From Myxococcota bacterium (lineage in GTDB: Bacteria; Myxococcota_A; UBA9042; PHBI01; JAWLBL01): DNA of 64,000 bases. How positions within the stretch are numbered: position 1 is the stretch's first letter; every line of letters starts with the position of its first letter. The notes under the pieces are model-generated. The model did not search any database. It was not told the origin of the DNA and was given only the letters and a program-made list of their open reading frames with translations. This document shows, one piece after another, positions 4,372 to 33,969 of the stretch. A program made the translations under genes and the position numbers. The stretch lies in assembly GCA_041687695.1 (NCBI GenBank), contig JAWLBL010000019.1:110685-174684 (forward strand), given 5' to 3'.

Positions 4372-4377
4372 TAGGAC

Positions 4378-12460: not shown

Positions 12461-12462
12461 CG

Positions 12463-12828: not shown

Positions 12829-12902
12829 CCCGAAGGGGTCGCTCCCTCTGGACGGGGAGTCGTCGAGAACCAGGTGGGGTCATTCGTTAGGAGTGACCCA
12901 AA

Positions 12903-13787: not shown

Positions 13788-13808
13788 GCGAGCGCAGGGG
13801 CGGCCACG

Positions 13809-15271: not shown

Positions 15272-15696
15272 GGGCGAGCGAAGTACGCCGGGCGATCATC
15301 GCGGCCGTGGAGGCGATCCAGCCCGATCACCGCGCGACACCGGCTGACGTGTTTCGTCACGTCGACCTGGGGCAGATCACCGCCGGGGTGTCGCTCCCGG
15401 ACCGGTCGTTCTACGTGGCCCTCGAGTCGCCGCCGCGCGACATGGCGGACATGACGGACAACCTGTTCCAGGTCGGCTACTCGGTTCAGGTGTTCTACGC
15501 GGCGTCGCCGACGATCGATGACCGAATCGGGGCCGACGTGGAGAAGCTGATCTGGGCGCTGCCTCAGATCCCGGCCGGCCACAACGAGGTGGCGTCGGCA
15601 TCGGTCCTATCGACCTCGGTTGGTGAGGACGAAGGCGGGATCGATGTCGTCGTCTTGGTCGAGGTGACGTACCGGCTGGACGACCTGTCGGCCTGA
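15268..15696 (+). CDS. Putative tail terminator
   Basis: ~142 aa acidic protein preceding the tail tube; begins RASEVRRAII. Confidence 0.5.
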   Translation: MRASEVRRAIIAAVEAIQPDHRATPADVFRHVDLGQITAGVSLPDRSFYVALESPPRDMADMTDNLFQVGYSVQVFYAASPTIDDRIGADVEKLIWALPQIPAGHNEVASASVLSTSVGEDEGGIDVVVLVEVTYRLDDLSA

Positions 15697-15747
15697 GCCC
15701 CTTGGACGGGGGCGCGAAGAACACGGTGGGGTCAGGAGTGACCCCGG

Positions 15748-16956: not shown

Positions 16957-16957
16957 C

Positions 16958-17431
16958 ATGGCGATCCAGCTGATCCGTAAGACCGACACGGTGGCCCTGG
17001 TCTGCACGGCGGACGAATCGGTCACCCTCCCCGAGGGCGCCTCGCGCGAGCCGGTCCAGTGGGTGGAGGCGGACAAGTTCCCCCACGGGGCCGACGCGAC
17101 CGTGGTCACCATCCGTCCGCTCGTTCACCTCGAGGTCCACGGCCTCGCCGGGAGGGACTTCCAGGAACAGTGCCACCTGGCGGTGAGGGCCGGGCTGGTG
17201 AGCCTGTCGGGGGTGGAGACGCGCGACGAGGCGGTCGACGCTATCCCGTACAAGCTCGCCCCCTCGCTGGGGGCGGCGATCCTCTCCTACACGTTCGGGG
17301 CCGTCGACCCTTTCGGCCTGGTCGCGCCCGAACGGCGGTCTGGCTCGACCAGCTCCGGGCGCAAGGCCTCGCCGAGTGCGTCGACCAAGGGTGCTCGCCC
17401 GAGTGCGACACGAAAGAGGGTTGGTGGCTAG
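16958..17431 (+). CDS. Tail assembly chaperone (gpG-like)
   Basis: Between tail tube and tape measure; contains slippery C CCT TTC at 17308-17314. Confidence 0.65.
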   Translation: MAIQLIRKTDTVALVCTADESVTLPEGASREPVQWVEADKFPHGADATVVTIRPLVHLEVHGLAGRDFQEQCHLAVRAGLVSLSGVETRDEAVDAIPYKLAPSLGAAILSYTFGAVDPFGLVAPERRSGSTSSGRKASPSASTKGARPSATRKRVGG

Positions 17432-17649
17432 GCCGCGAGTGGACCTGCTGCCCGATCCGGGACCTGACCAGCGACCGTCACCTGATGGTCGCGCTGGACC
17501 TGGACGGGCTGGCTGGTCAGGGGCTCATCCGGCTGGACGCCGGGGAGTACGCGAGCTGGGTGATCGATGCGGTGCGGCTGATCCGCGCGAAGAGGGCTGA
17601 CCGGGAGCGACACGAGCGCGAGCGGCTGAAGCGACAGGCGAGGGGGTGA
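17308..17649 (+). CDS. Tail assembly chaperone -1 frameshift extension (gpGT-like)
   Basis: The -1 frame is open from the slippery site to 17649, ending just before the tape measure gene. Confidence 0.6.
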   Translation, partial: PFRPGRARTAVWLDQLRAQGLAECVDQGCSPECDTKEGWWLGREWTCCPIRDLTSDRHLMVALDLDGLAGQGLIRLDAGEYASWVIDAVRLIRAKRADRERHERERLKRQARG

Positions 17650-17653
17650 CGAC

Positions 17654-20179
17654 ATGGCAGCCGGGAGAGTCGAGCTCGTCGTCCAGGCCGTCGCCGAAGA
17701 TCGGATCACCGCCACCCTGAAGAGCACGTCCAAGGGCCTCGACCAGCTCCGGGAGAAGCTGAAGGACCAAGAGGAAGGGGCCGGGAAGGCGACGACCAAG
17801 TTCGGGAAGTTCACCGAAGGCCTGTCCGGGATCGTGGGCTTCGCGGGCAAGCTCGGGTTGCTGGGAGCGGCGGCCGGGGTCGCCTACAGGGCCGTCGGCG
17901 AGCTGGGCGAGGCGCTGGACGTGGTGGCCGGCGCGAAGGCGGCCGACCAGTTCGACGTGATGACGAAGTCGGTCAGGGGCTTCGAGAGCATCGTCGCGCA
18001 GGCGAAGGAGTCGACCGCCGGGATGATCCCCGAGGGGGAGATCATCCGAGGGGCGGCCCTCTTCAAGTCGTTCGGGTTGGACGTGAACCAGCTCCCGAAG
18101 GCGTTGGAGCAGGTCAGCAAGACGGCGGTGCGGACGGGGGAGGACGCCAAGTTCCTGGCGTCGTCGCTGGTCACCGGCATCTCGCGCATGTCGCCGATGA
18201 TCTTGGACAACCTCGGCCTGACGGTGAAGCTGTCCGACGCCAACGCGCGGGCCGCCGAGATGTTCGGCAAGACCGCCGACGCCTTGGAGGACCAAGAGAA
18301 GAAGGCGGGGATGCTCGCCCTGGCGTTGGACCAGCTCGCCAAGGCGAACGAGCCGGTCGACCTGACCAACTCCCGAACCGCCAGTCTCGAGCGGCTGAGC
18401 GCCGGGTGGGAGAACCTGAAGGGGTCGATTCAGAGCCACCTGGCGGACGCGGCGGTGGCGGTCCTCGACTGGTTCACGACCAGCGACGAGAAGACCAAGA
18501 TCCTGGTCAACGACATCCGGGAGGTGTCGCCCGCGCTCCATGAGATGCAGGCGGCGGCTCGGCAGTCGTTCGACAGCTACATCGCGAGCGTCCAGCGGGC
18601 GATCGATCGCACCCGGGTCCTTCAGGAGATCCAGCTCGAGACCGGGAAGCGCCTCGCCGAGGGCGACGCCGATCGCATCGCTGCGGCCGAACAGGACGCG
18701 CGCGCCAAGGCGGCCGAGCAGTACGACGCCGAGCAGATCGAACGGGTCCAGGCGATCGCCCGGCTGGTGGAGTCGCGCCTCATCACCGAAGAGGAGGCGG
18801 CCAAGCGCATCAAGGCGATCGAAGAAGAGCGGGCGCGGGTGGTCAAACAGGCCGGGGATGCCTCGCGCCGGGTGACCTTCGATGCCCTGCAGGCGGAGGC
18901 GGCGCAGCGGGCGGCTCAGGAGGCGAAGAACAAGGCGCTCGCCGAGGAAATCAAGGCGCAGACCGAGATCAACGAGATGCTGAAGGGGCGCGGCCCCCTG
19001 TTGCTCGAGCTCGGCCGAGTGCAGGCGAAGCTCGCGCAGGCCGAAGGCCTCTCGGCGGAGGAGCGGCTGACGCTGCTTCAGGACGAGTCGCGCCTGATCG
19101 TTGAGGCCAAGCGAGAGCAGGACGCGCTCTACAAGGTGAAGGCGGGTGGGCTCCGGGCAGAGGGCGAGCTGATCGGCTCGAACCTGCGGCTGCAGAAGGC
19201 GCAGCTCGAGGCGCAGGTGAGCCTCACGGAAGAGCAGCGGCGGTCCGCTGCGATGCTCGCGTGGGAGATCCGCCTTCAGGAGATCGATGCCGACCTGCGC
19301 GCCCGGAAGGTCACGGCGGCGCGTGCCGAGTACGAGACCAAGCTGGCCGACCTGGCGCTCCAGAAGGAGCTGGCGAAGCTCGAGAAGGAGTCGACGGCGG
19401 CGGCCGAGAAGGCGGCGGCGAAGGAGGCGGAGAAGGTCGCCAGCCTGCAGACCGAACTCGCGCTCATGGGGGCGCGGAACGAGTCGGAGCGGGAGCTGAT
19501 CCGGCTGCAGGCCGAGATGGACCGGTTGCTCGCCAGCTCGGGGCCGATGGTCTCCGAGAGCGAGTCGCTCCAGCTGCAGATCCTGGCCGAGCGCATCGGC
19601 GCGGTTCACCGCGAGATGGAGAACGCGAAGCTCGCCGACAGCTTCCGGGAGGTCGGGGACAGCCTCTCCTACGCCTTCGACAAGATCGGCCAGTTCAACG
19701 CCGAGCTGCCGGCGGTCGGCACGGCGATCCAGGACATCACGAAGGTCTGGGGCGACTACGCGACCGGACAGACGGGCGTCCAGGACGCGATCGTCGGCAC
19801 CCTGGGGGTGCTCGGGCCGGCGACCGCCCAGTTCGTCGAGGACACCAAGACGAAGGCCGCGATCATGGCGGCGTTCGAGGCCGCGCAGGCGGTGGCCAGC
19901 TACCCGAACGTCCCGGCGATGATCGCCCACGGGGCGGCGGCGGCGATGTTCGGCCTGGTGGCCGGTGGGGTGATCCCCTCGACCGCAACCCCCAAGGGCG
20001 CCGCGACTCCGAAGATGCCGACGCCGGAGCGTCAGCGCGAGCCGGGCGGCTCCGGCGGTCAGCGGACGGTCGTCGTCAACATTAACGGCGGGCTCTCGAC
20101 CGCGCAGGACGTGGCGTGGGCGGTCCGCAAGGCCCTGTCGTCCACCGAGGGCACCGGACGCGAATCGGCGAGGTGGTGA
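17654..20179 (+). CDS. Tape measure protein
   Basis: 841 aa, Ala/Glu-rich helical; ILDNLGL and WENLK motifs; C-terminal VVVNING. Confidence 0.8.
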   Translation: MAAGRVELVVQAVAEDRITATLKSTSKGLDQLREKLKDQEEGAGKATTKFGKFTEGLSGIVGFAGKLGLLGAAAGVAYRAVGELGEALDVVAGAKAADQFDVMTKSVRGFESIVAQAKESTAGMIPEGEIIRGAALFKSFGLDVNQLPKALEQVSKTAVRTGEDAKFLASSLVTGISRMSPMILDNLGLTVKLSDANARAAEMFGKTADALEDQEKKAGMLALALDQLAKANEPVDLTNSRTASLERLSAGWENLKGSIQSHLADAAVAVLDWFTTSDEKTKILVNDIREVSPALHEMQAAARQSFDSYIASVQRAIDRTRVLQEIQLETGKRLAEGDADRIAAAEQDARAKAAEQYDAEQIERVQAIARLVESRLITEEEAAKRIKAIEEERARVVKQAGDASRRVTFDALQAEAAQRAAQEAKNKALAEEIKAQTEINEMLKGRGPLLLELGRVQAKLAQAEGLSAEERLTLLQDESRLIVEAKREQDALYKVKAGGLRAEGELIGSNLRLQKAQLEAQVSLTEEQRRSAAMLAWEIRLQEIDADLRARKVTAARAEYETKLADLALQKELAKLEKESTAAAEKAAAKEAEKVASLQTELALMGARNESERELIRLQAEMDRLLASSGPMVSESESLQLQILAERIGAVHREMENAKLADSFREVGDSLSYAFDKIGQFNAELPAVGTAIQDITKVWGDYATGQTGVQDAIVGTLGVLGPATAQFVEDTKTKAAIMAAFEAAQAVASYPNVPAMIAHGAAAAMFGLVAGGVIPSTATPKGAATPKMPTPERQREPGGSGGQRTVVVNINGGLSTAQDVAWAVRKALSSTEGTGRESARW

Positions 20180-20183
20180 CGCG

Positions 20184-21809
20184 ATGGCGACGATCTACAT
20201 CGATACGGTCGCGGGCTCGGACGCTTCGCCTGACGCCACCAACCCGGCGACGCCGGTGCAGACGATCGGCGAGGCGCAGACCCGGGCCACTGTCGGTGAC
20301 AGCACGTTCGGGTCCGGCGACACCATCAAGTACCTGAACGCCGGCCCGGTCCCCCCGATCCCGATCAGCACGAAGGCCGGGCTCACCTACGAGGCGGCCG
20401 ACGGCGGGACTGAGGTCGACGCGACCGGGCAGAGCAGGGGGGTCTACCTCTACAACGGCCAGACCGCGCGCGGCTTCACGGTCCACTCGTCGACCGGCGA
20501 CGGCATCGTGGGCTACACAGCATCGACCAGCGCCCGGCGGGTTCGCGCAGTCGATTGCACCGCCCACGGGAACGCCGGCCATGGCTTCTCCATCGTGGCG
20601 CCGGAATCGGAGATCCACCGCTGCATCGCCCACGACAACGGCGGGCGCGGGTTCCAGACCGGCAACAACGGCTCCTACACGCTCTCCGTGGTGCTCGCGT
20701 TCGACAACGGGACCGGGGGCGTGCGGGTCAGCGGCGCGGGGGCCGTGCTCGAGCACGCGACCGCCTTCGGGAACGCGGGCGCCACCTACGCGATCGAAGT
20801 CAGCTCGAACGCGGTGGCGCGCAGCTGCATCGCCGTCGACAACCCGACCGCCTACGGGATCGGGTCCGACCTGGACGACGTGACCAACAGCTGGTCGTTC
20901 AGCTCGAACCGGTCGCTCTACCACACGACGGCTGACTTCTTCGGCGGCGCGACCCCCACCGGCTGCGGGACCACGGACCCGCTGCTGACGGACCCGTTGG
21001 CGGGCGACTTCACCCTGCAGGTGGGCTCGCCCTGCATCGGGACCGGCGTCACCGGGCTGGCGACGGTCGACCTGGCCGGCGTCGACTTCACGGACCCACC
21101 TTCGATGGGGGCCTACGAGGCGGCGCTGCCGCCGGACCCGCGCAACCGCTGGGACCCCCGGGTGGCGGGCCTGTACGAGGTCACGTCGGGCTGGTCGGGC
21201 TCCGTCAAGGTGACCGTCGACGGCGCCGAGACCTCCGTCACCCCGAGGGCGCGAACCAGCGCGGCCGAGGTCTGGGAAGCGGTGCTCGCGCGGGTCCGGC
21301 GCCTTCACGGGGAGGCGACCCCCTGGGAGGCCTGGGCCGACGCCACGGGGAAGCTGACCCTGGTCGGAGAGGAACTGACCGAAGCGGGGTTCAGGCTGGC
21401 CTTCACCGGCAACGCCGGAGAGCGGCTGGGGTTCGATGAGTCAGGCTACGAGGGCCAGCTCCAGTACACGTCCGAGGCCGGCCCGGACGGGCTCGCCGCG
21501 TTCGGGGTCGACCTGATCGCCGACGGGGCGCCGGCAGTGGCGTTGGCTGAGGCGGCGGCAGTCGCCGATGGGTCGCTCGCCCCGAGCACGCGGAACACGG
21601 CCAGCACGGTCACGCTTTGGGTCTACGACGCGGCGGTGACCGCGTTCGGCTACCGGGCCTTGGTCGGGCGGGTGTTCGACATCCTCGGGCCGGGCGCTCG
21701 TTGGTTGGGGCGGCTGCAGGTGCGCGGGCATCGGGTGGTGAAGCGGGGGCAGTCGTCGGGCGCGCCGGTCATGCTGGCGGAGCTGCGCTGCGAGGCGGTG
21801 GCCCTGTGA
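20184..21809 (+). CDS. Tail protein with right-handed beta-helix and choice-of-anchor-Q-like segment
   Basis: Repeated .N.G.G. units; DFTLQVGSPCIGTG...PSMGAYE. Confidence 0.65.
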   Translation: MATIYIDTVAGSDASPDATNPATPVQTIGEAQTRATVGDSTFGSGDTIKYLNAGPVPPIPISTKAGLTYEAADGGTEVDATGQSRGVYLYNGQTARGFTVHSSTGDGIVGYTASTSARRVRAVDCTAHGNAGHGFSIVAPESEIHRCIAHDNGGRGFQTGNNGSYTLSVVLAFDNGTGGVRVSGAGAVLEHATAFGNAGATYAIEVSSNAVARSCIAVDNPTAYGIGSDLDDVTNSWSFSSNRSLYHTTADFFGGATPTGCGTTDPLLTDPLAGDFTLQVGSPCIGTGVTGLATVDLAGVDFTDPPSMGAYEAALPPDPRNRWDPRVAGLYEVTSGWSGSVKVTVDGAETSVTPRARTSAAEVWEAVLARVRRLHGEATPWEAWADATGKLTLVGEELTEAGFRLAFTGNAGERLGFDESGYEGQLQYTSEAGPDGLAAFGVDLIADGAPAVALAEAAAVADGSLAPSTRNTASTVTLWVYDAAVTAFGYRALVGRVFDILGPGARWLGRLQVRGHRVVKRGQSSGAPVMLAELRCEAVAL

Positions 21810-22471
21810 GGTACCTGATCGGATGGCTCGACAGCGGCTTGCCCGGCTACCGGTCGCTGACCATCGGAGGGACCGGGCACACGATCCCCGACGCCTACCA
21901 GCGGGTGACGGAGGCGGTCGACGCCCTCTCGAGCGAGCTGGCGGCGTCCGGGTGGAGCGCCGAGGTATTGGCGAACGGCCGCGTCAGGCTCACCGGCTCA
22001 TCGGCCGACCTGACCTGGCCGGACCGGCTCGGATGGCTGTTGGGGTTCGAGACCGAACCCGGCGACAGCGACACCGGGAAGACCTCGTTGACGAGCTCGT
22101 CGGTCCCGCCCGGGATCGTCCCGCTCTACGGGGCCGACGTGGAGGCGGTCGACCTGACGCAAGAGGAAGACCTGAGCGTGGATCGCCACCTTCGCGGGCA
22201 CGGTTACGTGTGGGGCGGGGCGGCGGTCTGGCGGGTTCGTGCGATGGCGTCGGCGGAGGCGGTTCGCGCCCTGAAGGCGGGATGGGTCCTCAGGGGAAAG
22301 GTCACGCTGAGCCCGACCTTGCACCCCGCGACCGCCGGGGCCTGGGACGCGGAGACCAACCCGGGCGGCTACTTGGACGGTCACGTCATGGGGTTGGAGT
22401 CGCTGACCTGGCGCGGTGACGCGCGGCTGGTCGCCGACCTGACCCTGCTGTTGGTGAGGGAACCCGCATGA
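21806..22471 (+). CDS. Phage tail protein (distal-tail-like)
   Basis: GTGA overlap with upstream gene; position. Confidence 0.5.
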   Translation: MRYLIGWLDSGLPGYRSLTIGGTGHTIPDAYQRVTEAVDALSSELAASGWSAEVLANGRVRLTGSSADLTWPDRLGWLLGFETEPGDSDTGKTSLTSSSVPPGIVPLYGADVEAVDLTQEEDLSVDRHLRGHGYVWGGAAVWRVRAMASAEAVRALKAGWVLRGKVTLSPTLHPATAGAWDAETNPGGYLDGHVMGLESLTWRGDARLVADLTLLLVREPA

Positions 22472-25005
22472 CGGACGCGACGTTCAGCCGAGCCCTCCAG
22501 CGGGGCCATTCGACCGTCTACAGCCTGACCATCGAAGGCATCCCCTACGTGTGGGTGGAGCGGGAGTACCAGCAGACTTCGGCGTCGGGGGCACCGGCGG
22601 TGCCGGCCGGCTATCTGGGGGCGGTGCCGGCGCTGTTGGTCGACGACGGCCAGAGCATCAGCGTGGAGCTGAAGCGCGAGAGCGGGATCGCCTCGGGGAA
22701 GGCCTGGGACATCGTCCTGAGCTTCGCGGCCCTGGAAGACGCGGAGCTGCTGTCGACGTTGTTCCGCCGGCCGGAGGGGCGGGCGCAGCTGACGGCGGAC
22801 GTGGCGGGCGACGACACCGTCCTGACGGTCGACGACACGGCCGAGGTCGACGACGCCACGCACCTGTACCTGGGGCGCGAGTGCCTGGCCGTCTCGGGGT
22901 CGACGGCGACGACCCTGACCGTCACGCGGGGCGTCGTCGGGTACCCCTACGCCTATCAGGCGCAGAGCCCGTCCAGCTACCGATGGGTGACGACCAGCCC
23001 GACCGTCTGGAAGGGCCGGCTGGTGACGCTGACGGAGCACCTGGTCTCGCCGGAGGGCCGGCTACTCGACGGGACGGTGGGGCAGGTCGGGGACTACTCG
23101 CGGGTGCTCTGGCGGGGCTACCTGGACGGCACCCCGAAGGTGACCGCGAAGGGGATGCAGCTGCGGGCGCAGGCGCTGGTGCGGCTGGCCTCGCAGGACA
23201 TCGGGTTCGAAGTGTCGCTCGAGACGGCGACAAGCCTCACCGGGTCGATGTTCGAGCACCACCTGGACTACCCGATCGTGGTCACGTCGGCCGACACGGT
23301 CCGGGTCCGCATCGTGTGGGACGAAGGGCTCAACTCGGGCGACAACGTCTACACGGTCCCGCAGCTGGACCCGTCGTTCACCCCGACGGTGATGACGTAC
23401 AGCGAATGGTGGGACCTGGTTCGGGCGGACCTCGAGGCCCTGGTCGCGCTGGAACCGTGGTTCAAGGGGCCTGGCTCGCTGTTCGGCTACCACACGTTCC
23501 ACGAGATCGGCCCCGGGAAGGTCGACCATTCCAACCTCATCCTGAAGGAGGATGGGTACGCGCTCGCGGTGACGGTCACGGCCGATGAGGGACGGTGCTA
23601 CTGGTACGAGCCCGGCGCCTACCTGGGCTCCGTCTCGCACACGACGGTCATGGGGGACCTGCACATCCCGGTGGGGCCGACGTTGGGGACGGGCTGGCTG
23701 CCCGTGCGGGTGATCGCCGGGGAGGGGATTCAGGACTACGACATCGGGGACAGCGGGATCGGCGTCGTCGACGGTGACCCGAAGGAGATCCTCCGATGGT
23801 CGGAGGCGCTCGACCTGGGCAGCGACACCATCCGAATGATCTACATCGCCGAGCGGACGATGAACCTCACGGAGCCGGCCGAGCTGTGGGCGGACGGGGT
23901 GAGGATCAAGGCGCTGTCCGGCTACTCGGGGACGCTGATGGATGGTCTGCTGACCCTGTTGACCAGCTCGGGGACCGGGCTGCGCTCGGCCACCTGGGAC
24001 ACCTTGGAACTCGGGATGGGGCTCGGGGTCCCGGAGGCGATGATCGATGTCGACGGCGACGGGGTCACCGCGATCAAGGGCGGGCTCGAGGCGCACGCGG
24101 AGCTGGACCCCACCGCCATCCTGGTCGCCGAGGGGCGCAGCTCCATCGAATCGCTCGCCGGTGGCTGGTTGTCGCTGTCGGGGCTCTGCCTGTCGCAGGC
24201 GGACGGGCTTCTGACGATGGTGGAGACGGATCCGGCCGATGACCCCGACGCGGTGGTGATCACGGCCGACGATGTCCTGGTCGAACGCCTCGAGCCAGAG
24301 GCGGAGGTCGACACCCCGAACGAGGTGCGGATCGACCCGAGCGGGATTGGGGTGGAGCGGACGCAGCTCCTGTTCCGGGACACGACCTCGGTTCAGGCGG
24401 AGGCGCCTCGGACGCGCGACCTGTCGGTTCCCGGGATTGACCCCATCCTGGCGGCCGTCTACGCCCACGGGCTGATCTCTCGCGGGCTCGGCCAGAGCAT
24501 CGTCCGGCTTCGCCTCGCCCCGTGGGCGCGGGTTCAGCCGGGCCAGCGGGTCCGGCTCTCGCTGTCGCACCCGATGCTCTACGACTGGAACGTCGGGGCG
24601 CGGGGGCCGGCGGTGGTGAACGCGCTCGCGCTGGGCGTCGAGACCAACCTGGTCGACGGCACGCACGCGGCGACCTTCATCCTGGCCGGGCTGCAGGACG
24701 TGGCCCGCTACCTCTGCCCGTGCGCCGAGGTAGCGACGGTCGACACGGTCCGGGACGTGACGGTCGACGAGCCCCAGTGGTTCGCGGTCGATGACGTGGT
24801 CACGCTCTACACGCCGGGCGCCGAAGCGAGCGAGCAAGTCACGCGGACCGTGACGGCCATCGCGGGCGCGACGCTGACGTTCGACGCCGACCATCCGGCC
24901 TGGCTGGCGTCCGGCGCCATCGTCACGTACCCGCCGCACGGGGCCGCGAACGACGACCAGCGGACCCACGCCTACGTGCGACCCGACACCCACTGGAGCG
25001 CGTGA
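22468..25005 (+). CDS. Tail tip / hub protein
   Basis: 845 aa, overlap-coupled, position in tail module. Confidence 0.55.
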   Translation: MTDATFSRALQRGHSTVYSLTIEGIPYVWVEREYQQTSASGAPAVPAGYLGAVPALLVDDGQSISVELKRESGIASGKAWDIVLSFAALEDAELLSTLFRRPEGRAQLTADVAGDDTVLTVDDTAEVDDATHLYLGRECLAVSGSTATTLTVTRGVVGYPYAYQAQSPSSYRWVTTSPTVWKGRLVTLTEHLVSPEGRLLDGTVGQVGDYSRVLWRGYLDGTPKVTAKGMQLRAQALVRLASQDIGFEVSLETATSLTGSMFEHHLDYPIVVTSADTVRVRIVWDEGLNSGDNVYTVPQLDPSFTPTVMTYSEWWDLVRADLEALVALEPWFKGPGSLFGYHTFHEIGPGKVDHSNLILKEDGYALAVTVTADEGRCYWYEPGAYLGSVSHTTVMGDLHIPVGPTLGTGWLPVRVIAGEGIQDYDIGDSGIGVVDGDPKEILRWSEALDLGSDTIRMIYIAERTMNLTEPAELWADGVRIKALSGYSGTLMDGLLTLLTSSGTGLRSATWDTLELGMGLGVPEAMIDVDGDGVTAIKGGLEAHAELDPTAILVAEGRSSIESLAGGWLSLSGLCLSQADGLLTMVETDPADDPDAVVITADDVLVERLEPEAEVDTPNEVRIDPSGIGVERTQLLFRDTTSVQAEAPRTRDLSVPGIDPILAAVYAHGLISRGLGQSIVRLRLAPWARVQPGQRVRLSLSHPMLYDWNVGARGPAVVNALALGVETNLVDGTHAATFILAGLQDVARYLCPCAEVATVDTVRDVTVDEPQWFAVDDVVTLYTPGAEASEQVTRTVTAIAGATLTFDADHPAWLASGAIVTYPPHGAANDDQRTHAYVRPDTHWSA

Positions 25006-25994
25006 TGGCCTACGACGTGATCAAGTACGGGACGCTCGCGGGCGGGCTTCGGGGGAACGCTCCGGCGTGGGGGCGCCTCGTCGCGAACCACGACGCGCTG
25101 TACGAGGCCTACGCCCCACCGATCACATATGGGGCGTCGTCGGAGGCGGACCCCCTCGTCGTCGCCGACACCGCCGACGCGAGCCTGTCGGAGACGTACC
25201 AGCCGTACCTCCGCTGGATCGTGCCTCGGGACCTGGACAACGTCCCGGTGGCGGTGACGGTGATCGCGCGCTGCACAGCAAACCAGGTGGGGGTGAAGCT
25301 GGTCAGCGGGGCGAACGAGGACTCCATCGGGGTGGCGTCCCCGACGTGGATCGTCTTCACCCTGACGGTCACCCCGGACGGGTCGCCGGGGCCGGCGCCG
25401 CTCTACGGGCGCGAGGTGCGCCTTGAGATGGCGGCGACTACCGAGCTGGCGACGGCCGCCGACATCCTGACGGTGAGCGCGCACTACGCCCCGACCAGCG
25501 TCCCGTCCGGCGTCCAACCGTCGGGCTGGGCACGCATGGCAAGCTCGCCGGTGACGGACGCTGACGAGCCGCTGACCAGCGAGAGGGTGGCGCGGCTGAT
25601 CAACGGGCCGGTCTACCTGGCGAAGGACCGGCCGGCCTGCGTGGCGTCCATGCTGCAGGACACGGCGGACGCCAACCGGGGCGGCGGTCGCTGGTCGACC
25701 CTCTCGAGCGACTGGGTCACGGCCGGCAAGGTCTCCATCCCCCCGCAGCCCAAGGGGACGCCCCCGATGGTCTACGGGGTCGCGGTCTACACCGGCGGCG
25801 ACGACACGGAGCTAAACCTCACGGTGCCCGGGACTTCGGCCGGCCTGTCGTTCAGCGGGGCAGGGTGGAGCTACGCGACGTTCGCGCACAACAACCCGGG
25901 CGCCCCCCTCAGCGGGTTGGTCCGGCTCCGAACCACGGGCATCAAGGCGAGCCTGCACACGCTGCAGGTGTTCCGCATCGGCGAGGTGAGCTGA
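25002..25994 (+). CDS. Phage tail protein (beta-sandwich-like domains)
   Basis: ORF in tail operon. Confidence 0.55.
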   Translation: MMAYDVIKYGTLAGGLRGNAPAWGRLVANHDALYEAYAPPITYGASSEADPLVVADTADASLSETYQPYLRWIVPRDLDNVPVAVTVIARCTANQVGVKLVSGANEDSIGVASPTWIVFTLTVTPDGSPGPAPLYGREVRLEMAATTELATAADILTVSAHYAPTSVPSGVQPSGWARMASSPVTDADEPLTSERVARLINGPVYLAKDRPACVASMLQDTADANRGGGRWSTLSSDWVTAGKVSIPPQPKGTPPMVYGVAVYTGGDDTELNLTVPGTSAGLSFSGAGWSYATFAHNNPGAPLSGLVRLRTTGIKASLHTLQVFRIGEVS

Positions 25995-25995
25995 G

Positions 25996-26577
25996 ATGGT
26001 GACGAAGGCCCCGCTCGCGACGCCCCTTTCGATGATGGCGCCGGTCGCGCTGACGGACCGGGCGCTCGCCCGCGTGACCCACCTGGCCTACGCAGACATC
26101 AACCAACACACGCTGGCGACCGCGTTCGGTGGACCGGCGACCTGGCTCCCGGTGGACCTCGAGTGCTCGTCACCGGGCGTGCCGACGACCGGCCAGCTCC
26201 TGTACCGGGTTCCGCTCGGGGTGACGCACTTGAAGGTGCGGGCGCGGGTCCAGGGCAGGGGGACGCTGCGCGTGACGAGCACCGACCTGGCCGGCGTCGA
26301 CCTGGACGCGGAGGGCGCGCTTTTCAGCTGGTACACCGACGAGATGGACCCGTCGCTGCTGACGGTCGAGTTCGGGATGTCCGTCTCGACGACCAAGCTG
26401 GACGACACGGCGACGGACGCGCGACGGCACCTGATCGTGTCGGCGTCCAGCGCGATGGCCTGGCAGGACGTGATCCTTCACCTGTCGCTGGACGCGGCGA
26501 CGGCGGACGTTCACGAGTTCGCGAAGCTCTACAGCCTGGCTCTCGAGCCGCTGCACCCGCTGCTGGCGGCCAGCTAG
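25996..26577 (+). CDS. Phage tail protein
   Basis: ORF in tail operon; GAGGTG RBS. Confidence 0.5.
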   Translation: MVTKAPLATPLSMMAPVALTDRALARVTHLAYADINQHTLATAFGGPATWLPVDLECSSPGVPTTGQLLYRVPLGVTHLKVRARVQGRGTLRVTSTDLAGVDLDAEGALFSWYTDEMDPSLLTVEFGMSVSTTKLDDTATDARRHLIVSASSAMAWQDVILHLSLDAATADVHEFAKLYSLALEPLHPLLAAS

Positions 26578-26714
26578 AGGGGTTCGCAGCCCATGATCTG
26601 CCGGGCCATGTCGCCGCCGGGACAGCACTGGGTCCCGGGCTCGTAGCCGGTCGGCATGTCGGCCTCGCACCCGGCGAGAAGGGCGGCGAGCGCGCAAACG
26701 ATCAAGCTCCGCAT
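26574..26714 (-). CDS. Small lipoprotein, 46 aa (not in ORF track)
   Basis: Hand translation MRSLIVCALAALLAGCEADMPTGYEPGTQCCPGGDMARQIMGCEPL; lipobox LAGC. Confidence 0.6.
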   Translation of the reverse strand: MRSLIVCALAALLAGCEADMPTGYEPGTQCCPGGDMARQIMGCEPL

Positions 26715-26809
26715 GGTGGTCACCCGTTGAGATGGAGGTCGGCACCGGTCCTATCGCACGTAGGCCAGTGAAGGCGCAGTCGAGCGCCCCCAATCGAAGA
26801 GGCGGCACG

Positions 26810-27295
26810 ATGGCAACCTACGGAGACAAGAGGAAGGCGCACGTCGAACCGGTGCGCGTGGTCGGCATCGGGACGGACGTGGCCGAACCGGGCGCGACCA
26901 TCGATGGCGTCACGATGGTCGTCGGGGACAGCGTGGCGGTGCTCGGTGTCGAGGGCGCGGGGATCTACGACTGGAACGGCGCGGCCGTCCCGATGACACG
27001 GCGCGACGACCGTCCGATCGGCTTCACCGCCGGGACGGCGTTCGTGGTGCTCGAGGGCGACGACTGGGGCGGGAGGATCATCGCGGTCACGGACGCCGAA
27101 GAGGGGATGCCCGTCGTGCTGACGCCGGCTCGCCACAACTTCAGCGCGACCTCCGCCCCGACGGCCGCCGACGACGAGGACAGCCTCTACGGGCCGGGCT
27201 CCATGTGGGTCGACACCGTGGCGGGTACCGCCTACCTCTGCACTAGCGGGGCGACCGGCGCCGCCGTCTGGAAGCAGTTCACGTTCGTCGCCTGA
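26810..27295 (+). CDS. Virion fibre / decoration-like protein
   Basis: GATIDGVTM..GD.V and YGPGSMWVDT...GAAVW motifs seen in fibre proteins. Confidence 0.55.
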   Translation: MATYGDKRKAHVEPVRVVGIGTDVAEPGATIDGVTMVVGDSVAVLGVEGAGIYDWNGAAVPMTRRDDRPIGFTAGTAFVVLEGDDWGGRIIAVTDAEEGMPVVLTPARHNFSATSAPTAADDEDSLYGPGSMWVDTVAGTAYLCTSGATGAAVWKQFTFVA

Positions 27296-27324
27296 TCGGC
27301 GGGCTTCCGACGGAGGGTTCCACG

Positions 27325-27651
27325 ATGACCGAGACCACGAAGAGGCACCCGCACGCGAAGATCGTCGCCGCCATCATCGCCGCCTTGGTGGCGATCGGCG
27401 GCGGGGTCTACGGGCTGGGCGAGACCGAAGGCGTGACCACGGTGACGACCGCGACCGTGCAGGGCCTGGACGCCCGGGTCGCGGCCAACACGGTGGCGAT
27501 CGCCGAGATCCGTGTCCAACAGGAGGCGGCCAACCAGGTGCTCGTTCGGCTGGACCGGACGATCGAACGCCTGGACGTGACGCTGGCCGAACTCGCCCGC
27601 GTCGTCGCCCGCATGGAGGGGCGCGACGCCATCCTGGGCACGAGCAAGTGA
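27325..27651 (+). CDS. Single-TM coiled-coil protein (holin- or i-spanin-like)
   Basis: N-terminal TM plus coiled coil; GGAGG RBS. Confidence 0.5.
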   Translation: MTETTKRHPHAKIVAAIIAALVAIGGGVYGLGETEGVTTVTTATVQGLDARVAANTVAIAEIRVQQEAANQVLVRLDRTIERLDVTLAELARVVARMEGRDAILGTSK

Positions 27652-28001
27652 AGCGGGTCCTGTTCGCGGCGCTGCTGGCCGGCTGTTCGGTCGACCTGCA
27701 GCGCCGGCCTGACCAGTTCCCCCCGCTCGAGCTGGGCGCCGGGCCATGCACGGTGACGATCGCGTCCGAACACGCGACCGTCACCATCCACCTGGGCGAC
27801 GTGTCCGCGCTGGTCGTCAGAGAGGCGACGGTCCGAGCCCTCAAGGGGCTGGCCGGTCAGGGCCTACAGGTCACGCCGATGATGATCGCACTCGTCGAGG
27901 GGCTCACGATTGCCGGGGTCGACGAGGGGCTCTGCCGGGTCCTCGACAAGGCCCGCAGCCATCTCAACGGCCGACTGGACCTGCTGGTCGAACGACGCTG
28001 A
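27648..28001 (+). CDS. Lipoprotein (o-spanin-like?)
   Basis: MKRVLFAALLAGC lipobox; GTGA overlap. Confidence 0.55.
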   Translation: MKRVLFAALLAGCSVDLQRRPDQFPPLELGAGPCTVTIASEHATVTIHLGDVSALVVREATVRALKGLAGQGLQVTPMMIALVEGLTIAGVDEGLCRVLDKARSHLNGRLDLLVERR

Positions 28002-28087
28002 CGCGGGCTCGACGCTTCCCGCTTGCTCGCGACTAGCGTGTTCCTCTTGAGACCGTTTCCCTAGCGGCCCGCCACAGAGCCTTGCAG

Positions 28088-28260
28088 GCACAGGGCCTAG
28101 TGGTCGGAATGGGGAATTCTGCAACTTCTTGGGTTGACGGCGGCCCATCTAGCCGCCATCGTTGTAAGCCTCCAACGACGACGCGTTCGGCGAAACGAGC
28201 CCTCCGGGGGGAGGGGCGTGCCGACCTCGTTACCGCCTCCGGCCCCAGTGGCCGAAGCGC
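28088..28260 (+). promoter_or_regulatory. Prophage copy of host nrdJ promoter/leader (degenerate NrdR boxes, TTGACG -35, structured RNA)
   Basis: Collinear with 44753-44920; 28173-28223 identical to 44838-44888. Confidence 0.8.
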
Positions 28261-28810
28261 GGCGACGTGTGTTGACCCGTAAGCCTCCCCCACAGCAGGT
28301 TCCAGCCAACACACGAACAGTCCGTCACGGCACGCTTCCCGTTCTGACACGGGGAGGGCAGCACATGCCCGGGCGTAGGTGCTCGGGCCTGACGACGGAA
28401 ACGGAGCAGTGCTCCGTAGCCTCGGTCAGGAGAAGCCACCTCGCCCGAACCAGGGCTGGGTTGCGTTCCGGCAGGTGCGAACCAAGACCAGGAGACAGAG
28501 AACGAACAAGGGGCTGCAACGCAGCCAAGCTACGAAGCAGCCCCGTGAAGACCTAGACCAACCAAAAAATCACCAGAGCTTGCTGGCAACTGCTCAGCGC
28601 GCTGGCCGGCGCGCCGCAGGTTGGCAACCAGGCGTGCGAACAACTCTGTCCAAGGCGTTCGTAGGTCCCGGTCGAGTAGATGTCAAGCGGGCTTGCTGCA
28701 ACCCAGAGACCTGGGGGGTCGGCTGCGTGGGCGTTCCACCGTAGCTGCACCGGTTTCCCGGGTACTGCAGGCCACCTGCAGTACGCCTCCGTGCGTTCCG
28801 CACAAAGGCA
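28170..28810 (+). ncRNA. Candidate long structured RNA or 5' UTR
   Basis: No convincing ORF; dense hairpins (28367-28388, 28401-28417, 28510-28544, 28762-28784, 28791-28803). Confidence 0.45.
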
Positions 28811-28817
28811 TCAAGCC

Positions 28818-28904
28818 ATGGTCGAGTTCCTGTTCGGCATCATCCTCGGCATCATCGCTCGCGACGTGTGGCCCCGTGGCACCCGTCCGCCGGCGAAGAA
28901 GTAG
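28818..28904 (+). CDS. 28-aa hydrophobic peptide MVEFLFGIILGIIARDVWPRGTRPPAKK
   Basis: ATG after AAAGG; hydrophobic helix plus basic tail. Confidence 0.45.
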   Translation: MVEFLFGIILGIIARDVWPRGTRPPAKK

Positions 28905-28925
28905 CAGGGGAGCCTGATCGCGCGG

Positions 28926-28956
28926 CGGGTTCACGGGGAACGGTCCCGTGAACCCG
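28926..28956. terminator. Perfect 12-bp hairpin between convergent genes
   Basis: CGGGTTCACGGG / CCCGTGAACCCG; no clear U-tract. Confidence 0.5.
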
Positions 28957-28975
28957 ACCGTAACCTCACAGGCGC

Positions 28976-29287
28976 TCAGCCGCCCCCGACGCGGGTCCCG
29001 CCGCCCTCGTAGCCGTTGCCGACGCCGGTCCCGTTTGCAGCGAAGCCGTTGCCGACGGTGCCTTCGTACCCGACGGTCCCCTTATAGCGGCCGTCGTCGT
29101 CGTAGCCGCCTCCAATCTCGGTTTCCTTCGCGGCGACCGTGAAGCCACCTCGCTCGACGCCGTTGTCGGCGGAGGCGGTGAAGCCGCCGGTGGTTCCGCT
29201 GCTGTCGTGGGAGGTGATCAGGAAGCCACCACCCGAGTAGCCGCCGGTGGCCAGAAGGGTCGCAGCCGCGATGATGATGAGCTTCAT
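28976..29287 (-). CDS. Small secreted Gly-rich protein
   Basis: MKLIIIAAATLLA signal peptide; GAGG RBS. Confidence 0.6.
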   Translation of the reverse strand: MKLIIIAAATLLATGGYSGGGFLITSHDSSGTTGGFTASADNGVERGGFTVAAKETEIGGGYDDDGRYKGTVGYEGTVGNGFAANGTGVGNGYEGGGTRVGGG

Positions 29288-29379
29288 GGGAGCCTCTGTG
29301 GTAGGTGCCGGTAACCCGCAGACGGGCAACCGTTCCACAGAATTCCAGGGAGCTCGTGCTAAGTGCAACGCTTCGGTCG

Positions 29380-30096
29380 TCAGCTGCCCTTGGAACGGTC
29401 AATCTTTGCCTGGAGTGTCGCCCTGCGCTCTCGGCTCCGAGCGGGCTGCACGTAGAAGAACTCCAAGAGGTCATCGAGGACTTGGAGCATGAGCTGAGCC
29501 TCGTTCTCTTCGATGTCGAGGATCTCACCTGTCACGCCGTCGGCCTTCAGGTGAACCGCGATGTTGCCCAGCTGCCGGACGTGGTCCAGTTCCTCGTGGA
29601 GGTGCGCCGGGAACCGCTGTTCGGCGAGCTTCAGGAGCCCGGCAAGGTTGGTCCGAGGCGAGGCGCTGGTGGCCTCGAGCAGGATGGCTTCCATGCACCG
29701 GCGGGAGAGCGCCGCCGAGGCCCGAGGGCTGATGTCGAGGATGGCCCAAGCCTCGCGCCAGTCCTTCGCGATCCCCTCGGGCACGGCCGGGTCTGGGGCG
29801 CGAGAGCGGAAGCGGGGATAGATGACCTGGTCAGGCCAGGGAGTACCGGAAGCGAGACCGATGTCGGCTCCGATGACCAGGATCGGGAAGTCACAGACTG
29901 GACATAGGAATCCGACGAGCGCCCACTCGCTCCGGCCTCGACTGCAGACCCAGTGAAAGGTCAGCGGAACCCACTCGCTCTCCTGCTGCCAGCTCTGGCC
30001 ACCACGGACGCGCATGGGCTCGCCCAGGTTGACCTTCTCTTGACAGTGTGGACAGGTCACCCGCGAGCCCTGATAGTAGACGTTCTCGTCGTTCAT
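29380..30096 (-). CDS. DUF4145 (HEPN-like) protein with N-terminal zinc finger
   Basis: CPHC...CPVC; SPRASAALSRRCME; RQLGNIAVH. Confidence 0.8.
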   Translation of the reverse strand: MNDENVYYQGSRVTCPHCQEKVNLGEPMRVRGGQSWQQESEWVPLTFHWVCSRGRSEWALVGFLCPVCDFPILVIGADIGLASGTPWPDQVIYPRFRSRAPDPAVPEGIAKDWREAWAILDISPRASAALSRRCMEAILLEATSASPRTNLAGLLKLAEQRFPAHLHEELDHVRQLGNIAVHLKADGVTGEILDIEENEAQLMLQVLDDLLEFFYVQPARSRERRATLQAKIDRSKGS

Positions 30097-30260
30097 CGTG
30101 GTCTCCGACGATTGCTCTCGTGGTCAACCTACCCCACCGGCGTCGATGCGCAACCGCGTCGATGGTCGAGGCTATCGACCTGCTTCAGCGACGGCGTCCG
30201 AACTGATGAAGGACGCGGCGGTCAAGGCAGGAGTCGAGAGGAGCGTAGAAGACCAGGACG

Positions 30261-30635
30261 TTGACAGGGTGGGATCTCGCGATCCTCATCAGAGCTATGA
30301 GACCTACCCACGACGTCCCTGCATCCGTGCTCGAGCTGATGGCCCAGCAGACGAGCTGGACCTGGTGCATCGAGGTCCTGACCGGATGGCTCAACAGGAC
30401 CAAGCGCTGCTACACGGTCTACGACGTATACTGCTTCCTGGTCGAGCACAGGCCCGGTGAGGCGGTCGACTACGACTACATCGCCCGTCGCCTCAGCCAG
30501 AGCAGTACGCCCGGCACCTACTACTGGGTGGCCTTCGGTCCCGACCATGAGTCGGCTCGGCAGTACTACGAGGCCCTGCGTGGGCGTCTGTCGCTGGCCG
30601 AGGTCGACGGAGGCGAGCTGTCGCTGACGAACTAG
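30261..30635 (+). CDS. Hypothetical protein (start may be 30297)
   Basis: ORF between the DUF4145 paralogues. Confidence 0.45.
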   Translation: MTGWDLAILIRAMRPTHDVPASVLELMAQQTSWTWCIEVLTGWLNRTKRCYTVYDVYCFLVEHRPGEAVDYDYIARRLSQSSTPGTYYWVAFGPDHESARQYYEALRGRLSLAEVDGGELSLTN

Positions 30636-31333
30636 GTAGCCTTCGAGGTCTTGGCCTTCAGGGCAGCTTGCCGCTGAGCACGCTTGGCCGGCTGGACGTA
30701 GTAGAAGTCCAGCAACTCATCCACGATGGTGAGCAGCGCCTCGGCCTCGTCCTGGTTGATCTCCATGATGGATCCCGTCGTGGAGTCCGACTTGAGATGG
30801 ACTGCGATGTTGCCCATCTTCCGAACCTCGTCGAGGTGCTGTTCGAGGTCTGACGGCAGCGTGGGCCCGACGCTGGTGATCATGTCGACCAGCCGAGTCT
30901 TCGGGTTCTGCTTGCCAGCGTCAACGAGGGTCGCCTCGATGCAGCGACGCGAGAGCGCCGCCGAGGCCCGTGGGCTCAGGTCGAGGATCGCCCATGCCTC
31001 CTGCCAGTCCTTGGCGATGTCGGCAGGTACGACTGGGTCTGGCGCGCGGACTCGAGCGGCAGGGTGGACGATCCGTTCGTCAAGGACTTTCCCACCTGTG
31101 ATGTCGTTTTGCACGGTTCTCAGGACGAGCACGAGTTGATCGCAGACTGGGCAGACGTAACCCCTTAGTTCTTGACGCTGCTGGCTTCTGTTCCGTTGCC
31201 AGGTGAGGAACAAGGACACGAGGGTCTGTCGGTCGCGGTCGTCGAGCGCAAAAACCTGTGTGTATTCGGGTAGGTTGATGGGCTGCTCGCAGTGGGGGCA
31301 GGTAACCCGGGCCTTCGGCTCGTAGCTCGTCAT
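30632..31333 (-). CDS. DUF4145 (HEPN-like) protein with N-terminal zinc finger, paralogue
   Basis: CPHC...CPVC; SPRASAALSRRCIE; RKMGNIAVH. Confidence 0.8.
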   Translation of the reverse strand: MTSYEPKARVTCPHCEQPINLPEYTQVFALDDRDRQTLVSLFLTWQRNRSQQRQELRGYVCPVCDQLVLVLRTVQNDITGGKVLDERIVHPAARVRAPDPVVPADIAKDWQEAWAILDLSPRASAALSRRCIEATLVDAGKQNPKTRLVDMITSVGPTLPSDLEQHLDEVRKMGNIAVHLKSDSTTGSIMEINQDEAEALLTIVDELLDFYYVQPAKRAQRQAALKAKTSKAT

Positions 31334-31455
31334 GTTCCTCTCCTAGGGGGCCAGAGCTTAGCGGACCCTCAAGGATCCGCAACGTCGTTCGGGACGGACG
31401 AACCTTGATCGGGTCTGTCGTCTTCCGCTACTCAGAGCTGAGCGGAGGAACGCCA

Positions 31456-33063
31456 ATGACCGAGCCCACGCAATCGACTGCGCGACGAGCTGTCATCTAC
31501 GCCCGTGTCTCGAGCCAGGGGCAGCGGGACCGCCAGACCATCGAGTCCCAGCTCCGGGTCTTGCCCGAGTTCGTCGAGTCCCGGGGGTGGGAGCTGGTCA
31601 GGCCCACCGACACCTATATAGACGATGGGTTCTCGGCCAAGGCCGGGGGACTCGACGACCTCAAGGGCCGGGCCCAGCTGCTCTCGGATGCCGAGGCGGG
31701 CCTCTTCGACCTGGTGGCGGTGGTCGACCAAGACCGGCTCACCCGATCGGAGGACTTGGTCGAGCGCGGCTACATACTGGGTTCGCTCCAGCGGGCTCAG
31801 ATCCAGATCGCGGTTCAGTCCACCGGCCAGGTGCTCGACCTCTCGAGTTCCGAGGGCGACCTGCACGCCAGCCTCCAGGGGTTCTTCAGCGCCGAGGAGA
31901 ACCGCAAGCGTCGGAAGCGAACTCTCGATGGCAAGCAGACCGCGATCAAGCGTGGCCGTAAGCCCTCCGGCCCAACCCCCTACGGCTACAACTACGATCG
32001 AACCACCGGTACCTGGACCATCGACCAGGACCAGGGTGCGATCGTACGCGAGCTCTTCGAACGGGTCGCTGGCGGCGAGTCCTGCCACAGCCTTGCCAGG
32101 GAGCTGAACGAGCGAGGGGTCCCTCGCCCCAGGAGCGGCGCCTGGCAGCAGGCGCGGGTCAACCAGATCGTCCGCCAGCGCGCCTACATCGGGACCTACA
32201 CGGCCGACAAGAAGAGGAACCTGACCATCGAGGTCCCGAGGATCGTGAGCGACTGGCTGTTCGAGCAGGCCGAGATCGCCCTGCAGGCCAACCGGTTCCA
32301 CCTCAACCCCAAGACCAACCACTACAACCTGGCCCAGGGGATCGGGGTCTGCGGGGTCTGCGGCCAGGACATCCTGCTTACGGGCAACAAGCTCAAGAAG
32401 CGGTACTACGTCTGCCGGTCCAAGAAGGGGCTGGGCAAGGACGTCGAGCGCTGCCCCAACCCGATGCGGCAGGTCGAGCCCACCGACGAGAAGATCTGGG
32501 CGCAGGTCCGCTACGTGCTCGAGCAGCCCGACCTCCTGGAGGGAGCGGTCCAGCTCCGGATCGATCGGGCCAACGAGACCGACTGGGAGGCCGAGCTCAA
32601 GGAGACCGAGTCCAAGCTGGCCGCCATCGATCGCCGGGCCCAGAACGTCCTCAACTCCTACATGAAGGGGTTGATCGCCGACGACGTCTACGAGCAGCAC
32701 CTGGTGTCGACGCAGCGGGACCGAGAGGGGCTGGAGCGCCAGCGCGATCTGGCCAACCAGAACCTGCTGGCCGCCAAGAGGACCGAGCAGGAGACCCGTG
32801 CTCTTCGGGCGACCGTCGAGAAGCTCAAGCAGAACCTCGACACCGCGTCACCAGAAGAGCGCCAGAAGCTCGTCAGGATGCTGATCCCAGGCCGGGACGG
32901 GTACCGGATCACGTTCGAGCAGGACGGGACCCTGACCATCATGGGGATGGTGGATGCCGGGACACCCGCATCGAACAAGGCTGGATCAGGGGAAGGAGAG
33001 GGCGGCTCGGGTGTCTTCCACGATGACGGTGTATCAACCAGCTGCGACAGAAGATCGGGGTGA
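31456..33063 (+). CDS. Large serine recombinase (prophage integrase)
   Basis: YARVSS catalytic motif, DRLTR, PYGY recombinase domain, CGVCG...YYVC zinc ribbon, coiled coil; GGAGG RBS. Confidence 0.95.
33011..33056. other. Putative prophage-host att junction
   Basis: RecA-like translation begins at 33033; GGT-GT-AT-CA-ACC symmetry and flanking TCTTC/GAAGA. Confidence 0.65.
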
Positions 33064-33506
33064 TGTTCGGCAACCCCGAGACGACGACCGGGGGCAACGC
33101 CCTCAAGTTCTACTCGAGCGTCCGCCTGGACATCCGGCGCATCGGGGCGCTCAAGAACGGCGACCAGGCCATCGGCAACCGCACCCGGGTGAAGGTGGCC
33201 AAGAACAAGGTCGCGCCGCCGTTCCAGACCTGCGAGTTCGACATCGTCTACGGACGCGGGATCTGCCAGGCGGGCGAGCTGCTCGACATGGGCGTCGAGG
33301 TCGGCGTCATCGACAAGTCCGGCGCCTGGTACTCGTGGCGCGAGGGGCGCCTGGGCCAGGGGCGCGAGAAGGCGCGCGAGGCCCTGATGGCCGACGAGGC
33401 GCTGTTCCGGACCCTGCGCGCCGAGACGATGGCGCGCCGGCTGGGGCGGCCCGCGCCGGTGGTCGAGGTGGCGGGCGACGACGGCATCGAGGCGCAGGCC
33501 GCCTGA
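33033..33506 (+). pseudogene. recA: RecA C-terminal half, interrupted by the prophage
   Basis: [36 protein letters not shown]...KNKVAPPF...KSGAWYS; in-frame TGA at 33024. Confidence 0.95.
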
Positions 33507-33528: not shown

Positions 33529-33969
33529 ATGAGCGTGAACAAGGCGTTCCTGGTGGGCCGGCTCGGCGCCGCGCCCGAGATGAAGACGACCCAGGGCGGA
33601 AAGGCGATGTGCCAGTTCAGCGTGGCCACCGACGGCTGGGGCGGCGAGGACAAGGGCCGCACGACCGAGTGGCACTCGATCGTGGTCTGGGAGCGGCAGG
33701 CCCAGCTCTGCGAGCAGTACCTGAACAAGGGCAGCCTGGTGGCGGTCGAGGGGCGGCTCGCGACCCGCAGCTGGGACGACCCCAAGTCGGGCGTCAAGCG
33801 CTACAAGACCGAGGTCGTCGCCTCGCGCGTGACGTTCCTCGGCGGCCGGGGCGAGGCCACGACCCACCCGAGCGGCGGACACGACGGCGGGCCCGGAGCC
33901 GGGCGTCGCGGTGGCGCGGTGGGGGTGGCGCATGCGGGGCGGGAGGTGCGTGATGACCTTCCGTTCTGA
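33529..33969 (+). CDS. ssb: Single-stranded DNA-binding protein
   Basis: MSVNKAFLVGRLG...TEWH...VEGRL; C-terminal DDLPF. Confidence 0.95.
   Translation: MSVNKAFLVGRLGAAPEMKTTQGGKAMCQFSVATDGWGGEDKGRTTEWHSIVVWERQAQLCEQYLNKGSLVAVEGRLATRSWDDPKSGVKRYKTEVVASRVTFLGGRGEATTHPSGGHDGGPGAGRRGGAVGVAHAGREVRDDLPF

Follow-up and report, generated by a model that had tools for sequence, protein, structure and literature searches.

Active lysogeny, of which the Listeria comK prophage, the sigK skin element and SPbeta in spsM are examples, is defined by a regulated, non-lytic excision. The locus analyzed here, from a Myxococcota bacterium, shares with these systems a serine integrase, a gene split without any replacement and the exact restoration of that gene expected upon excision. 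Elements inserted in recA itself (recA mobile elements, RME) have been described in Vibrio cholerae S24 and V. parahaemolyticus 090-96 (PMC4405046, PMC4334540) and, according to the cited sections, they resemble our element in that they measure about 30 kb, are site-specific in recA, occur in both orientations and are excisable with exact restoration of the gene. However, the Vibrio RME are genomic islands harboring a “phage integrase family” recombinase, they lie at nt 491-494 of recA, and they split the sole housekeeping recA, for which they supply a full substitute copy, whereas ours is a phage with a serine integrase, lies at nt 577-578, splits a paralogue and brings none.

A second group of precedents concerns the attachment site. 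In the phage Mx8 (and Mx9), attP is located inside int and integration replaces the integrase C-terminus (PMC6070905, PMC4701971); in the cited sections, the prophage form of the Mx8 integrase is reported to be less active (PMC4701971, PMC6070905). Our phage shares with Mx8 the att site within int, the C-terminus swapped on integration and the myxobacterial hosts. Nevertheless, the Mx8 enzyme is a tyrosine integrase in which 112 residues are replaced by 13, while ours is a serine integrase that loses a strand-forming tail of 15-25 residues (sometimes plus a domain) and that targets recA. The streptococcal rumA ICEs are also similar, in that a serine integrase has attR in its own gene and the 3′ ends are swapped in a different frame; these, however, belong to Firmicutes and target rumA, and the cited part of the report describes neither a conserved tail nor a tail function (PMC4701971). 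Lastly, competence genes are overrepresented among the targets of serine integrases, comM foremost, and the genes disrupted by these or by other elements include comM, comK, comYC, comFA and ssbB (PMC10083194, PMC12378983, cited sections); the insertion described here is likewise gene-breaking and falls in the recombination arm of transformation. As a target, recA is named neither in section 13 of PMC12378983 nor in the text and eight supplementary files of PMC10083194, and in the literature searched we found no serine-integrase phage targeting recA and no such element in myxobacteria, a listing in a preprint table being possible. Thus, what appears to be new is the combination of a recA target without replacement and a tail swap due to an att site in int, the precedents being known separately.

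The genome (7.97 Mb) is distributed over 63 contigs, and the window, i.e., the whole stretch of 64,000 nt that was analyzed, corresponds to C19:110685-174684. A preliminary description of the window had proposed that a serine-integrase prophage lies inside recA and supplies no replacement for the missing 5′ half, and both points were borne out. Indeed, the gene of a 535-aa large serine recombinase (31456..33063, forward strand) overlaps a sequence that opens at 33033 with ATC AAC CAG (I-N-Q), where a RecA frame preceded by an in-frame TGA (33024-33026) runs open to a stop at 33504-33506; tblastn found no other RecA-like sequence inside the element, so neither a replacement half nor a complete gene is present. 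The recA 3′ half (33033..33506, forward strand) encodes residues 192-348, including Q194, loop L2, the KNK motif and the C-terminal domain, and no mutation is visible in it. The matching 5′ half was found on the same contig, downstream of comM and 2.3 kb to the left of the window (C19:107838-108416, with its ATG at C19:107838 and 193 codons). A whole-genome search with the Pfam RecA model returned three places, that is, the two halves on C19 (model positions 3-189 at C19:107865-108425 and 185-261 at C19:143717-143947, the latter from window position 33033) and a complete copy on C27, which is the second host recA that the preliminary description had anticipated.

The two halves have in common the hexamer ATCAAC, whose copies are 35,306 bp apart. 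The attL core (C19:108411-108416) closes the 5′ half (..V-I-F-I-N) at the left prophage end, and the attR core (33033..33038, forward strand) represents the I-N codons of recA, with the crossover dinucleotide AA at 33036-33037; the narrowing to AA derives from the junction letters of homologous insertions. As the preliminary description had envisaged, both attB and attP could be rebuilt. Once rejoined at the hexamer, the halves are in frame and yield 349 codons, of which only the last is a stop, i.e., a 348-aa RecA that has the complete set of Walker A/B, L1, L2 and KNK motifs and that aligns with the C27 RecA (63.6% identity) without gaps at the joint; the GC3 of the two halves is 0.97 and 0.98. 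The insertion follows codon 193, the crossover falling at nt 577-578 of recA. The P arm of attP/attR (33014..33035, forward strand) lies within the integrase coding sequence and forms an imperfect inverted repeat with the P′ arm at attL; in the rebuilt attP, 13 out of 22 positions are paired about the central AA (fraction of shuffles as good, 0.001), as expected for a serine integrase. No excised junction, either attB or attP, is present in the assembly, and excision would restore recA exactly. In the lysogen, the predicted product of the 5′ half has 229 aa (193 from RecA and 36 from phage DNA) and is devoid of Q194, L2 and the C-terminal domain; on the basis of established RecA biochemistry, the split gene should be null.

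The question then concerns which recA is hit. The split gene belongs to a conserved comM-recA-ssb locus, the third gene of which (ssb, 33529..33969, forward strand) begins 22 bp past the recA stop, two more ssb genes being located elsewhere in the genome; the intact C27 copy is embedded in a cinA-ORF-recA-alaS locus. RecA matches were retrieved from all 41 genomes of relatives, most of which harbor two complete copies, and in the second-copy loci fetched, which represent the empty site, comM flanks recA in 15 out of 15 cases and ssb in 13 out of 15. All nine lysogen genomes tested retain an intact housekeeping recA, and the 3′ half of the split gene was found in seven of them; the housekeeping copy was thus left whole in every case, and no replacement recA is carried. 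The analysis of a RecA tree constructed with 87 N-terminal halves (a quick version without bootstrap) placed all 15 split rows outside the 45-row housekeeping clade (SH-aLRT 96) and among the comM-linked copies. Moreover, the sequence N-Q-L-R-Q-K is present at the site in 12 out of 24 intact comM-linked copies vs. none of the 49 housekeeping ones. Both results bear on the suggestion that such a site might serve as a broad-host integration tool: the attB is indeed conserved, but the idea is weakened by the different 3′ arm of the housekeeping gene and by the absence of split rows from the housekeeping clade.

The N-domain of the split copy is more basic (pI 8.06 vs. 6.11). In one genome (G448), the comM-linked copy starts with M-S-K-V-S-E-K and the other one with A-N-P-E-K-E-K, and a by-eye translation of the published expression primers of Myxococcus xanthus reads M-S-K-L-A-E-K in the case of RecA1 and M-A-V-N-Q-E-K in that of RecA2 (PMC7029660). 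The N-terminal likeness and the pI point to the split copy belonging to the RecA1 lineage (MXAN_1441). According to the cited sections, strand exchange and LexA cleavage in M. xanthus are carried out by RecA1, which is weakly expressed, is not preceded by a LexA box and is dispensable (PMC7029660), whereas RecA2 may be essential, a double mutant having never been obtained (PMC12288472). The loss of recombination and of the SOS response, which the preliminary description had attributed to the insertion, is partly supported, since the indirect evidence places the split copy in the RecA1 lineage, but the housekeeping recA and lexA (on C20) are both still there and intact. The strict M. xanthus SOS-box consensus (taken from the cited section of PMC9705874) has no exact match in the genome, and, allowing up to two mismatches, neither of the recA genes, lexA nor the prophage has a box; sequences resembling one upstream of lexA and of the C27 recA were recognized by eye only. 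The host also possesses comEC and dprA, genes that are near-universal among the control genomes (10/14 and 11/14, respectively).

Concerning the element itself, the window embeds the right 33 kb (1..33038) of the 35,306-bp prophage, whose left end is 2.3 kb to the left of the window; its GC content is 0.671 vs. 0.72-0.74 in the flanks. The following structural genes lie on the forward strand: the terminase large subunit (8898..10391), an SPP1-like portal protein (10388..11866; ESM Atlas feature score 0.98, without an HMM match), a candidate major capsid protein (12903..13787; by position and size only, without a PHROG match), the tail tube protein (15748..16956) and the tape-measure protein (17654..20179; a weak PHROG match); a scaffold candidate was recognized by position only. 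The presence of terminase, portal, tail tube and tape measure, with the capsid assigned by position, suggests a temperate phage of the tailed type, and the packaging, head and tail module is apparently still open. No repressor was recognized in the prophage, and an S24-type repressor had no match in the element, the clear S24 match of the genome being lexA on C20, a negative result that bears on the RecA-independent induction considered in the preliminary description; no recombination directionality factor (RDF) was recognized among the prophage ORFs scanned, RDFs being small and divergent. Without a recognized repressor or directionality factor, the element could be locked in. We found no Rfam match within the window and no sigma-70 promoter consensus at 31200-34100.

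The prophage carries, in addition, genes that might represent cargo. Two DUF4145 genes (29380-30096 and 30632-31333, reverse strand), located just upstream of the integrase, form a duplicated pair with 80% nucleotide identity over 122 bp and match the PD-T7-4 defence model, which makes them candidate anti-phage cargo. A Type II restriction-modification module (Vsr, a C5 methyltransferase and an Eco29kI-family endonuclease) is placed at the left prophage end (G000:C19:108683-110935, corresponding to L004:10684-12936), and the early region encodes a MORN-repeat protein with a likely signal peptide (window 3403-4371).

The prophage form of the integrase matches Resolvase (PF00239), Recombinase (PF07508) and Zn_ribbon_recom (PF13408), as well as phrog_95; in an alignment of 40 homologues, the catalytic S19 and the Zn-ribbon cysteines C299, C302, C320 and C333 are invariant, and the family model matches the SprA, Bxb1 and A118 structures. 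The domains, the 2-bp core and the quasi-symmetric attP are consistent with a large serine integrase of the phiC31/Bxb1/A118/SprA type. Its frame does not end before recA; rather, it crosses attR and stops at 33061-33063, inside the recA 3′ half, and the last seven residues of the prophage form come from recA read in another frame. As attP lies within the integrase gene, the excised form is predicted to have 548 aa and to end with the hydrophobic R-F-R-L-V-V. Six further attL/attR pairs were rebuilt; each has an AA core and rejoins recA in frame, with attP arms paired at 10-20 out of 24 positions vs. 4-8 out of 24 for attB. In all seven rebuilt cases, ours included, the integrase of the excised form regains a conserved tail at its C-terminus that contains an alternating hydrophobic stretch, followed in three of the six further integrases by 30-90 additional residues. 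Among the homologues listed, 44 out of 119 have a strict [RK]-x-[VIL]-[AVG] ending and 59 out of 119 fit a looser motif, the consensus ending in an alignment of 64 chosen tail-bearing proteins being L-R-I-R-L-V-A. Two AlphaFold models display a disordered, att-encoded linker followed by a paired strand, which corresponds to residues 517-522 of 523 and 242-248 of 249 (last-block pLDDT 92 and 76); with most solved integrases and RDF fusions, the alignment reaches the linker only and ends before the tail strand. Thus, the free phage would encode an integrase with a conserved beta-strand tail, of which the prophage form would be deprived. Some tail-bearing integrases are found in long genome-bin contigs (e.g., L060 and L068), so that in some members the att site may be outside the gene, or these genes may be remnants. 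After the strand, weak HTH or treble-clef matches were obtained in P0047 and P0115; these two proteins, the rebuilt attP forms of G444 and G445, L082 and L121 represent free-phage integrase forms with long C-terminal extensions that resemble HTH or zinc-finger domains and that integration would cut off.

To survey the insertion sites, loci were taken from genomes, viral contigs and metagenomes with the 40-sequence alignment, the record titles being mostly those of Myxococcota. Overall, 257 integrase homologues were found, 120 of which were listed (39-53% identity); out of 113 loci examined, 50 were dropped (contig end before the integrase end, broken frame or identity below 33%), and the remaining 63 fall into 51 clusters at 95%. 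No close integrase was found among annotated phages (best about 26%), and the single-query search of viral contigs gave 26% matches only. Twenty of the 51 clusters adjoin recA at the I-N-Q site (residues 192-196) with crossover AA, three of them forward (ours, L087 and L100) and 17 reverse, among which L093 rests on 24 bases only. A further 23 clusters represent the unintegrated form, ending in the tail, and eight end abruptly at non-recA sites, this division of the last 31 clusters having been made by eye from the C-termini. The conserved attB is thus used by homologous integrases in 20 of the 28 integrated-form clusters; the specificity for recA is not absolute, the other eight being at different sites, such as the comM 3′ end (L128) and an EVE-domain gene (L102). 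The recA-site members are dispersed across the integrase tree, in which the forward cases, three in number, do not group together; this implies that the orientation has flipped more than once; such a flip needs only AA vs. TT relative to int. In one relative (G307), both recA halves lie on one contig and flank a 45,367-bp contractile-tail prophage that has only the integrase in common with ours. An apparently similar insertion in another genome (G003:C261) was merely a contig end in the housekeeping-type copy and was not counted.

In five of the non-recA sites (L064, L092, L094, L115 and L152), the motif TTGTCG recurs some 20 bases after the core; beyond this motif, homology is limited to L115 and L152. 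The idea that these five are attP forms whose frame stops at the core was dropped, because in their relatives the frame continues across the true attP, and they are regarded as other targets. The comM-linked recA is also broken elsewhere, by a distant integrase in the vicinity of residue 127 (27% identity; L077:1630-1971) and at the G-N-P codons, 11 codons downstream (L068:1819-2439).

On the whole, we consider it likely that the element is a temperate phage with a dedicated attB in the comM-linked, RecA1-like second recA of myxobacteria. The sequences show that its large serine integrase recombined at the AA of the I-N codons, a site that related integrases on unrelated elements use in either orientation; recA, split before Q194 and L2, would be null, and the other recA would maintain viability. 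It may well be, by analogy with what has been reported for Mx8, that the change of tail lowers or redirects the activity of the integrase in the lysogen and, in turn, stabilizes the prophage. More tentatively, the site might be favored because the comM-recA-ssb locus serves the recombination of incoming DNA, in which case the split would hinder curing by transformation and may damp the SOS response. The protection of prophages from chromosomal curing by transformation is a concept set out in the cited parts of PMC12637031 and PMC12378983; in our case, a link to competence is suggested by the target gene adjoining comM and by the family member that sits in comM (L128), and the second recA may have a role in transformation. 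Excision, finally, would most likely be the start of lysis rather than a reversible host switch.

These suggestions have to be weighed against other readings of the same data. That the junction is an assembly chimera or an old pseudogene is hardly credible: even though the genome is a draft of 63 contigs, the halves lie on one contig, the core is duplicated, attP is symmetric and independent records show the same junction for a further 19 integrase clusters. A different view of the tail, somewhat unlikely in our opinion, is that it is not structural and that the attP-encoded residues, with their ssrA-like ..V-A end, act as a protease degron that renders the integrase of the free phage unstable and tunes the choice between lysis and lysogeny. 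The position of the consensus L-R-I-R-L-V-A at the extreme C-terminus fits this view, which also has a precedent in mycobacteriophage repressors, where a degron is lost upon integration; however, the models predict an ordered strand for the tail (pLDDT 92 and 76), and the strand is internal, with more sequence after it, in G443, G444, G445, P0047 and P0115. As regards the fate of the prophage, it is rather improbable that we are dealing with active lysogeny, in which a non-lytic excision under stress or competence would restore recA1 and be followed by reintegration, the phage thereby turning recombination and SOS on and off. The two unmutated halves with their host-like GC3, the exactness of excision, the missing S24-type repressor and the strand exchange and LexA cleavage known for the M. 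xanthus RecA1 would all suit such a switch. Intact halves, though, also fit a recent insertion, the assembly contains neither the attB nor the attP junction, and the genes for packaging, head and tail apparently remain open; moreover, the phages found at the site in different hosts are unrelated and the site is mostly empty in relatives, which speaks for recurrent infection and not for a domesticated switch.

The main rival to a selected target is that of a neutral safe harbor, which we regard as a real, if less than probable, possibility: I-N-Q would simply be strongly conserved and belong to a paralogue that the cell can do without, ensuring a wide host range at low cost, with the loss of recA as a side effect. 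In the cited sections on M. xanthus, recA1 is dispensable for growth and no double mutant could be obtained, so that housekeeping insertions may be lethal or counter-selected (PMC7029660, PMC12288472), and the eight clusters at other sites point in the same direction. On the other hand, the same gene is used at three sites (I-N-Q and those of L077 and L068) and comM at one (L128), which suggests selection on the locus. Returning to the dedicated attB in the second recA, its parts might even be joined in a single picture, that of a myxobacteria-wide integrase family specialized in switching off the recombination- and SOS-competent RecA1 and sparing the essential paralogue. Lysogens would resist curing, rival prophages would not be easily induced, and the recombination itself would strip the integrase of a docked strand at its C-terminus, in some cases along with a DNA-binding domain. 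This strand would act as an intrinsic control of directionality, either replacing an RDF or complementing it, and a transient excision would return recombination to the host on demand; as a whole, this picture is unlikely.

The disruption of recA is normally too costly, and the known recA islands pay for it with a replacement copy. Myxobacterial phages would instead exploit the duplication of recA, providing a natural and recurrent knockout of one paralogue and, with it, a handle on why myxobacteria keep two RecAs and on whether one of them is dedicated to incoming DNA. The conflict between prophages and transformation would, in this way, reach beyond comM and comK and include the recombinase. 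As a candidate form of directionality control in serine integrases, the tail swap is simple and has seven attP/attB pairs defined, and the enzymes might become new integration tools for myxobacteria, at the cost of inactivating recA1.

Three minor observations concern other sequences. A 16-kb element inserted in recA (G441:C25 ~57600-73800; L239) has primase-helicase, excisionase-like, head-protease, tail and tape-measure matches and a second integrase fragment, with no terminase or capsid match among the 20 ORFs scanned; it is satellite-like, that is, a satellite or a decayed phage. The host genome harbors a second, distant serine-recombinase-like sequence (29% identity; G000:C24:27179-28153). 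Within the prophage, an apparently non-coding stretch of 164 bp (~28098-28261) is 85% identical to a copy in the host flank (~44763-44923), and it is possible that this repeat represents a structured RNA or a small mobile repeat.
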